This document shows, piece after piece, positions 56,004 through 56,174 of a DNA stretch of 64,000 bases; positions within the stretch are counted from its first letter, which is position 1; each line of letters opens with the position of its first letter. The translations under genes and the position numbers were made by a program. Under the pieces are notes generated by a model that was given only the letters and a program-made list of their open reading frames with translations, was not told the DNA's origin and did not search any database. Source of the stretch: Escherichia coli (GTDB lineage Bacteria; Pseudomonadota; Gammaproteobacteria; Enterobacterales; Enterobacteriaceae). The stretch is from assembly GCF_003334815.1 (NCBI RefSeq), contig NZ_QOWO01000001.1. One strand, written 5' to 3'.

Positions 56004-56174
56004 GCCGGTGGATATGTGGTCTGTAATGATTTATGATTATGTTGCGTTAACAAAGAACGCGACCATTACAGCCTTCACCGGCTTTTTGGTATTAAGGGGT
56101 TCGGTTTTCTGTTTGGCGACGTGAACCGATCCCCGCCTTATTCAAGCCCTCAGTTCTGCTGGGGGCTTTTTATT
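56004..56174 (+). ncRNA. Candidate structured small RNA or RNA regulatory element between alpA and int
   Basis: Three consecutive plus-strand stem-loops. (1) GCCGGTG(56004)...CACCGGC(56082) enclosing GGTCTGTAATG/CATTACAGCC, followed by T5. (2) GGGGTTCGGTT(56096)/AACCGATCCCC(56134). (3) AGCCCTCAG(56145)/CTGGGGGCT(56167), followed by TTTTTATT. No ORF longer than 11 codons. Confidence 0.35.

Follow-up and report, generated by a model that had tools for sequence, protein, structure and literature searches.

The window analysed here (64,000 nucleotides of Escherichia coli contig NZ_QOWO01000001.1) contains a 9.35-kb phage-satellite-like island of the int-alpA-primase type, inserted in the chromosome at the 3′ end of fis. 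The island has fis on one side and yhdJ on the other and is flanked by a 17-bp direct repeat (AATACGGCATGAACTAA, positions 48335-48351 and 57681-57697), a sequence that forms the 3′ end of fis. The island genes all lie on the minus strand, in the order int, a 294-bp gap, alpA, a 93-aa open reading frame (ORF), a VapE-type primase/helicase gene, several small ORFs and a gene for a 757-aa tape-measure-like protein. The gap, bounded by the int stop codon (56278-56280) and the alpA ATG (55983) exactly as in an initial annotation of this DNA, is the subject of the present analysis. It had been annotated as a candidate regulatory RNA, read from the plus strand and antisense to the genes of the element. 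Covariation, G.U pairs and U-tracts of plus polarity and a conserved predicted promoter, all of them seen in a comparison of homologues, argue for such a reading.

Hairpins of the int-alpA gap and their strand polarity

The three consecutive hairpins of the initial annotation were recovered with the arms given in Table 1. Folding of the 171 nt between 56004 and 56174 yielded -72.1 kcal/mol on the plus strand (z -6.39, with 0 of 200 shuffles as good) and -53.6 kcal/mol on the minus strand (z -4.69). Both the terminator scan and the fold agreed with the annotation that the minus-strand versions of the hairpins have no good U-tracts. Of the two plus-strand terminators proposed there, hairpin 3 stands, as it was called by the scan and its equivalents were called in homologues too, whereas hairpin 1 is probably not a simple terminator: it has a G+C-rich base and T5, yet forms a 79-nt composite stem with a conserved predicted promoter inside its 5′ arm. 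A repeat of the repetitive extragenic palindrome/bacterial interspersed mosaic element (REP/BIME) type was rejected, since the gap is present at one place per genome in the 43-47 of 5426 E. coli genomes that have it.

Table 1 Features of the int-alpA region, with window coordinates (SL, stem-loop; sRNA, small RNA)
Feature	Position	Strand	Description and basis
Hairpin 1	56004..56087	neutral	Long composite inverted repeat, T5 on the plus strand (56083-87); GCCGGTG (56004-10)/CACCGGC (56076-82), inner stems CTGTAATG/CATTACAG and GCGTT/AACGC; fold and co-variation of arms
Hairpin 2 (SL3)	56096..56134	+	GGGG...CCCC-closed stem GGGGTTCGGTT/AACCGATCCCC, single mismatch, no U-tract; compensatory changes, G.U polarity
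Hairpin 3 (SL4)	56144..56176	+	Intrinsic terminator, AAGCCCTCAGT/GCTGGGGGCTT (56144-56168), then TTTATT; terminator scan (11 pairs, 6 GC, tail TTTATTACTA)
Predicted sigma-70 promoter P_as of the sRNA	56009..56037	+	-35 TGGATA (56009-14), 17-bp spacer, -10 TATGAT (56032-37); inside the 5′ arm of hairpin 1
Predicted ~130-nt sRNA	56044..56173	+	SL1 56044-56060, SL2 56062-56090, SL3 56096-56134, SL4 56144-56168, U-run to about 56171-56174
Predicted alpA promoter block	56186..56224	-	Overlapping candidates TTTACT-16-TATTAT (56213..56186) and TTTAAA-16-TACAAT with TG (56224..56197)
int, tyrosine integrase, 411 aa	56278..57513	-	PF13356 and PF00589; upstream of the gap
alpA, 59 aa	55804..55983	-	PF05930 Phage_AlpA (E 3.5e-13), HTH_17; phrog_66 excisionase/transcriptional regulator; presumed target of the sRNA

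Relatives of the integrase with 54-88% identity share the same layout, with int, a gap of ~300 bp and an alpA of 57-64 aa. They come from E. coli, Cronobacter sakazakii, Salmonella enterica, Klebsiella michiganensis and metagenomes/Logan assemblies, mostly from the fis-acrS neighbourhood, and their gaps have the hairpin layout in common at only 64-76% identity. The homologue set comprised 15 int-alpA gaps, 11 of them distinct; alignments included 13-15 gaps, and promoters and ORFs were compared on 14 aligned copies.

The interval was described initially as ORF-free with a longest ORF of 11 codons, which is incorrect: the plus strand has an ORF at 56008-56124, which has 38 codons when counted from GTG and 32 when counted from the ATG at 56026. 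The 38-codon frame is intact in the window and the Cronobacter copies only, and just 2-8 codons of it remain in 12 of the 14 aligned homologues (9 of 11 distinct lineages), so that by comparison the interval is still non-coding. An upstream ORF on the minus strand, located in hairpin 1, has between 3 and 33 codons depending on the copy and is not conserved. With no conserved small ORF on either strand, a type I toxin-antitoxin system was rejected.

All three hairpins persist across the aligned gaps. On the model-fitted alignment A9 (15 homologues), RNAalifold identified four plus-strand helices, the same as in the fold of the predicted sRNA. In agreement with the covariation anticipated for a functional RNA, 97.2% of cells in this structure are paired, both partners are changed in 11 pairs, compared with 5.9 +/- 1.1 in shuffles (0/500), and the covariation score is 0.331 against 0.164 (reached in 0/500); the sequences being few and related, these values indicate consistency and should not be read as formal p-values. 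Control structures slid by 1-3 columns scored 0.09 or less. A structure specified beforehand gave the same verdict on covariation, with lower pairing from register shifts in hairpin 2. MAFFT and covariance-model alignments placed the inner stem of this hairpin in shifted registers for three sequence types, hence the use of the RNAalifold register and of per-sequence folds.

Hairpin 3 exists as CCCTCAG/CTGGGGG, CCCTCAAC/GTTGAGGG, CCCCGG/CCGGGG, CCATCGG/CCGGTGG and other forms, and in five of its six pairs both partners have changed. For hairpin 2 there are four sequence types beneath an invariant GGGG/CCCC clamp (compensatory changes GC 6/UA 6, GC 9/AU 6 and GC 6/UA 6). The inner loop-proximal stem alternates between GCGTT/AACGC, GGGTTAT/ATAACCC and GCGCT/AGCGC. 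The arms of hairpin 1 co-vary as well, from TGTAATG/CATTACA to TGCAATG/CATTGCA, and in one homologue (L096) they are wholly different yet complementary (GCCGAGAGG/CCTCACGGC). We also observed that the sequence types of hairpin 2 are re-assorted among lineages.

The strand to which the structures belong was assessed by counting G.U pairs in per-sequence minimum-energy stems. Hairpin 3 has 16 such pairs when read on the plus strand and none on the minus strand, hairpin 2 has 22 and 7, respectively (38 against 7 for the two together), and the mean gain in stability on the plus strand is 4.1 kcal/mol for hairpin 3 and 2.5 kcal/mol for hairpin 2, seen in nearly every lineage. Every copy that has hairpin 3 has a stem-adjacent U-tract after it on the plus strand. 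In two homologues (L093 and L095) hairpin 3 is precisely deleted, and hairpin 2 then directly abuts GTTCTTTTTT with its T6 run. As hairpin 2 itself is devoid of a U-tract, it represents a conserved structural part of a predicted plus-strand RNA and not a terminator. No strand bias was found for hairpin 1 (7 G.U-type pairs on the plus strand and 6 on the minus strand), and on average its minimum free energy (MFE) favours the minus strand by 2.2 kcal/mol. On the minus strand it could serve as a leader structure or attenuator, on the plus strand as a terminator of antisense transcripts from upstream, or it could do both.

The polarity bears on two explanations in which the RNA has no function. 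The palindromes could act as DNA, for example as integrase or integration host factor (IHF) arm sites, a replication origin, a cruciform or a protein-binding palindrome, and the strand-neutral hairpin 1 and the highly conserved flanking AT-rich block would fit this. Nevertheless, G.U asymmetry and U-tracts are meaningless for double-stranded DNA, iterons are absent from the gap (iteron-like repeats are located at 53240-53330 instead), and the nearer of the two att core repeats is 1.5 kb from it; we regard a DNA-level element as very improbable. Arm-type Int/IHF sites of attP were rejected separately, since they would be expected no more than a few hundred bp from the att core.

The plus-strand signals might also be insulators only, that is, terminators in tandem (hairpin 1 followed by T5, hairpin 3 by its T-run) that block stray antisense transcription into the alpA promoter and int, with a functionless RNA. 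There are indeed two canonical plus-strand units of stem and U-tract, any plus-strand transcription would be antisense to the island genes, and the island has a further plus-strand terminator right after attL that replaces the displaced one of fis. Insulation does not account for hairpin 2, which is conserved with compensatory changes and polarity yet has no U-tract, nor for the conserved predicted promoter immediately upstream of and inside hairpin 1. Moreover, a terminator at 48376-48400 already prevents read-through from fis, Rho would halt an untranslated antisense RNA of 7.7 kb, and the segment is hypervariable rather than merely maintained. Taken together, this explanation appears quite unlikely.

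Predicted antisense RNA and predicted alpA promoter

P_as was the only plus-strand promoter-like site that the promoter scan detected near the gap. The site was called independently in L088 (TGGAAA-17-TATAGT) and in the Salmonella copy L007 (GTGACA-17-TAAAAT, 10/12), and the best promoter candidate occupies the same alignment column in 14 of 14 copies, with a spacer of 17 bp in 12 of them and of 18 bp in the best-scoring candidates of L093 and L096. The six variants of the -10 element (TATGAT, TAGAAT, TAAAAT, TATAGT, CAAGAT and TACAAT) always keep A2 and T6; since the -10 element is in an unpaired internal loop of hairpin 1, pairing is not the reason for its conservation.

Transcription from P_as would start ~7 nt downstream, near G56044, and would end at the hairpin-3 terminator; the two ends of the predicted sRNA in Table 1 were derived from these signals. 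With its start inside the 5′ arm of hairpin 1, the RNA would keep just the inner stem-loop and the 3′ arm of this hairpin, and because the 5′ arm is missing from it, it would proceed past T5 to hairpins 2 and 3. The product is predicted to fold into four stem-loops (MFE -51.5 kcal/mol, z -5.2), with GCGUU/AACGC in SL1 and ACCA..AGCC/GGCU..UGGU in SL2. As expected of a cis-antisense sRNA, compensatory changes preserve the structure on the proposed strand, and an intrinsic terminator is found at the 3′ end.

On the minus strand, the predicted alpA promoter block is located within the most conserved stretch of the gap, GTAAATACCCTTTAAATTCAT (56195-56260), and equivalents of the sense promoter were found in L007 (TTGTTA-16-TATTAT) and L096 (TTTACA-17-TAAAGT). 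The alpA transcript would thus start at about 56179-56190 and have a leader of about 195-205 nt that holds the complement of the whole sRNA. The two predicted promoters would be convergent at a distance of ~140 bp, and the footprint of the alpA promoter would include the sRNA terminator. The Shine-Dalgarno (SD) sequence of alpA, GAGGG, is at 55995..55991. The terminator scan identified no minus-strand terminator between int and alpA (55984-56277); canonical terminators are used elsewhere in the island. We also observed a motif, GTTATTTGCA(A)GT, both in the block upstream of alpA (56239-56257) and upstream of the second minus-strand operon (52972-52990), which may be a common regulator site, possibly of AlpA.

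The gap thus combines conserved structures, covariation, plus-strand polarity and conserved promoter-like and terminator signals. The interpretation we favour, with a probability of about one half, is that it carries a plus-strand gene for a ~130-nt cis-antisense sRNA, which would most likely act as a brake on alpA. In Gram-negative phage-inducible chromosomal islands (PICIs), AlpA is a helper-dependent positive autoregulator whose over-expression leads to excision and runaway replication, and no repressor is known (PMC6092414; PMC11773190). As int has no terminator, read-through together with autoactivation by AlpA would be dangerous and would call for a brake. The alpA promoter faces the sRNA gene, and with no terminator after int each alpA-bound transcript would carry the exact complement of the sRNA in its leader. 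Duplex formation between the two RNAs would then result in cleavage or destabilisation of the leader, and head-on interference between the two promoters would likely contribute. The sRNA would set a threshold against leaky or read-through expression of alpA, whereas strong, helper-induced alpA transcription would run over the sRNA promoter and silence it (reciprocal occlusion).

Several points weigh against this reading. The RNA, its promoter and both of its ends are predicted, and we infer that the RNA is made, where it ends, that alpA is its target and how it represses. The predicted P_as sites score just 8-10 of 12, and sites of this quality occur by chance about once per 470 bp. The 15 sequences (11 distinct) are phylogenetically clumped, and shuffle statistics overstate the significance of their covariation. 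The sRNA does not overlap the SD or AUG of alpA, its 3′ end being 55-60 nt upstream. A switch in which the sRNA, by pairing, would release the 3′ arm of hairpin 1 so that it could mask the SD was rejected, as the partition function gave a P(unpaired) of the SD of 0.53 against 0.50; pairing 55-60 nt upstream would thus not lower expression by way of SD accessibility. The sRNA alone does not account for hairpin 1, which is the largest of the structures. Finally, the element is the property of one rare satellite family and not a general feature of PICIs, because EcCICFT073, the prototype PICI, has no such element.

The hairpins could instead be structures of the minus-strand alpA mRNA leader (an attenuator, a processing site, a means of translational control or possibly a substrate for antitermination by AlpA), with no relevant plus-strand RNA. 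They sit exactly between the predicted alpA promoter and alpA, and hairpin 1, without plus-strand bias and on average more stable on the minus strand, ends just 5′ of the SD, with AUGUUUUG following. Pseudomonas aeruginosa AlpA is a Q-like antiterminator whose binding element lies between -35 and -10, with terminators in the leader (PMC7969949), and the most conserved block of the gap likewise falls between -35 and -10. Furthermore, an integrase clade of ~50% identity has a sense-strand hairpin (CCCTC..GAGGG) with a U-run before alpA. The polarity of hairpins 2 and 3 speaks against a leader function: on the minus strand 38 of their G.U pairs turn into C.A, against 7 the other way, with a loss of 2.5-4 kcal/mol. 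Usable U-tracts are absent from the minus strand, the U-run that follows hairpin 1 there being down to 3 U in homologues, and the AlpA of the island matched no antiterminator chain in the PDB, its sole match being an uncharacterised ‘AlpA family’ structure (8c3t). A leader for antitermination of the AlpA/Q type was rejected, as 55984-56277 is free of sense-strand terminators and hairpins 2 and 3 are weaker on the minus strand and lack U-tracts. We consider a leader function in place of the sRNA rather unlikely; for hairpin 1 alone, it may hold alongside the sRNA.

Prophage- and island-encoded trans-acting sRNAs are well known, and the plus-strand RNA might act in trans on mRNAs of the helper phage or the host through conserved single-stranded stretches, alpA not being the main target. 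The nearly invariant linker around CCAUUAC..GCC..CCGGCUUUUUGGU and the U-rich terminator tail, similar to that of Hfq-type sRNAs, would be compatible with such a role. However, this linker corresponds to the 3′ arm of hairpin 1 and SL2, which accounts for its conservation, and perfect complementarity to the alpA leader is unavoidable. Action mainly in trans is, in our opinion, unlikely.

The antisense brake can be extended to a broader proposal, namely that an antisense RNA, and not a protein repressor of the Stl/cI type, is the missing determinant of quiescence or ‘immunity’ that holds the AlpA feedback off. A promoter nested in the hairpin of the very leader it targets would then make a bistable convergent switch, and hypervariability of the segment would set satellite-specific immunity types. 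We put this forward as a tentative possibility and remain doubtful of it. Our literature searches turned up no description of an RNA encoded between int and alpA. If the RNA is a brake, it offers a concrete and easily tested mechanism of repression for one satellite family, and Rfam would gain a new sRNA family.

Distribution of the module and other features of the island

Among 5426 complete E. coli genomes, 43 contain the island at ≥99% identity, and a further four have, at this site, a gap that is 71% identical. Strains that carry the island include WCHEC035148, AR437, FDAARGOS_433 and APEC37. Together with a small number of copies from Cronobacter, Salmonella, Klebsiella and metagenomes, the 47 genomes set the limited reach of the finding. 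Searches with an nhmmer profile and a covariance model built on the gap retrieved homologous loci only and nothing from ~150 loci of the next integrase clade (~50% identity). A first scan of genome contigs with a single integrase gave no match, the phage collection had no DNA match, and the viral contigs had the identical island only.

In the ~50%-identity clade (about 115 loci) alpA is located ~1 kb downstream of int, and upstream of alpA antisense terminators are not in excess over sense ones (39 and 38 loci, respectively). We observed that in many of these loci (L010, L018, L019, L028, L031, L034-L048 and others) the alpA SD, GAGGG, is part of the 3′ arm of a stable sense-strand hairpin, CCCTC..GAGGG, which is followed by a U-run and the ATG. 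This terminator-like hairpin would sequester the SD, a control design unlike that of the family in the window. In EcCICFT073, the 365-bp int-alpA gap has no hairpins, terminators or antisense promoter. It contains short repeat runs instead (GTTGTTCC/GTTGTGTC-like and GGGTTG/GTGTC-like, L180 4200-4300 and 4440-4500), possibly binding sites of a regulator.

Compared with the EC130 island, the island in the window is 99-100% identical in the primase region, 85-95% in int, 78-80% in alpA and 64-66% in the RNA region. Thus alpA and the RNA region are the most diverged segment between near-identical islands, which is typical of what would be expected from a specificity (‘immunity’) module. A mosaic was observed between window positions 55822-56321 and L002, where identity of 99-100% in the primase region changes abruptly to 78-80% in alpA, 64-76% in the gap and 85-95% in int, with the boundary at the 3′ end of alpA. 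In L096 the int-alpA RNA module is kept although the replication genes were swapped (PriCT_2 primase). In L093 (ENA k119_102716, a 9648-bp contig) the tape-measure gene is directly upstream of int on the same strand; this circular permutation of the island suggests that an excised circular or tandem form was present in the sample.

The island has some further features apart from the gap. Its 757-aa tape-measure-like protein (48429-50702, minus strand; phrog_28, E 2.7e-129, PF10145) is an unusual cargo for an island of satellite size, and recognisable capsid or terminase genes are absent from the 9.35 kb; the protein might change the length of the helper tail or have another role. At the left end, the 17-bp att repeat restores the fis stop codon, while the native fis terminator is displaced by 9.3 kb (to about 57724-57760). 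A plus-strand terminator just inside attL (TAAAGGGGCT..AGCCCCTTTA CTTTTT, 48376-48400) is the island-supplied substitute for it. Between divergent ORFs at 53240-53330, direct and inverted copies of GACACCTAATGACACC / GGTGACATTAGGTGTCAT are clustered and are a candidate operator or set of replication-origin iterons of the island. Outside the island, two matches to naRNA4 (REP/BIME-derived; 29013-29082 and 29104-29173, minus strand) above the Rfam gathering score are unrelated to the gap.

Comparison with known systems

The initial annotation had drawn an analogy with the CI RNA of satellite P4, which does not extend to family membership. The Rfam C4 model (RF01695) gave no match in the gap, either at the gathering score or at E values up to 10, and CI is cut from a sense leader, not transcribed antisense. 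In the gap, no family of Rfam 15 reached its gathering score, the best being anti-hemB with 18.6 bits against a threshold of 49.5, from the terminator hairpin only; all hits at E values up to 10 were terminator-like and below threshold. What P4 CI, the c4 RNA of P1 and P7 and the IIR transcript of PLE have in common with the predicted gap RNA is RNA-based immunity or regulation in satellites and phages by complementarity to leaders of early operons (PMC7567579). CI and c4 arise by processing of the sense leader and have seqA/seqC as their sites of action in trans, whereas the gap RNA is predicted to be a separate transcript of the opposite strand.

The PICIs EcCICFT073 and EcCIMP1 share with the island in the window the int-gap-alpA order and an AlpA (PF05930) that is a helper-dependent positive autoregulator, with no protein repressor known (PMC6092414, PMC11773190). 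The island in the window differs in its location at fis and in having a VapE-type primase and a tape-measure gene. The leaders of alpB and PA0807, on which AlpA acts in P. aeruginosa, are similar in that the target promoter has an element conserved between -35 and -10 and the RNA between this promoter and the first gene is structured (PMC7969949). The hairpins there are sense-strand terminators, in contrast to the gap, where terminator polarity is on the opposite strand, and the PDB comparison found no sequence link between the two AlpA proteins.

Closer in function are the cis-antisense RNAs of temperate phages and F-like plasmids. The OOP RNA of lambda (opposite cII) and the sar RNA of P22 (opposite ant) are ~70-80 nt long and terminated intrinsically; their transcription converges on the regulated gene, and they act through a duplex and RNase III. 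The predicted gap RNA is larger, with four helices, and would overlap the far 5′ leader, while OOP overlaps the 3′ end of cII and sar the ribosome-binding site of ant. Without any sequence or Rfam relationship to it, the closest functional analogue of the gap RNA is FinP, which is directed against the traJ leader of F-like plasmids. FinP covers the ribosome-binding site of traJ and needs FinO; the gap RNA would stop 55-60 nt before the alpA SD, and no chaperone gene is evident. FinP, a short RNA rich in stem-loops, has a promoter and a terminator of its own and lies opposite the leader of the master positive regulator traJ; it keeps the element silent, and its allelic variants give element-specific control.

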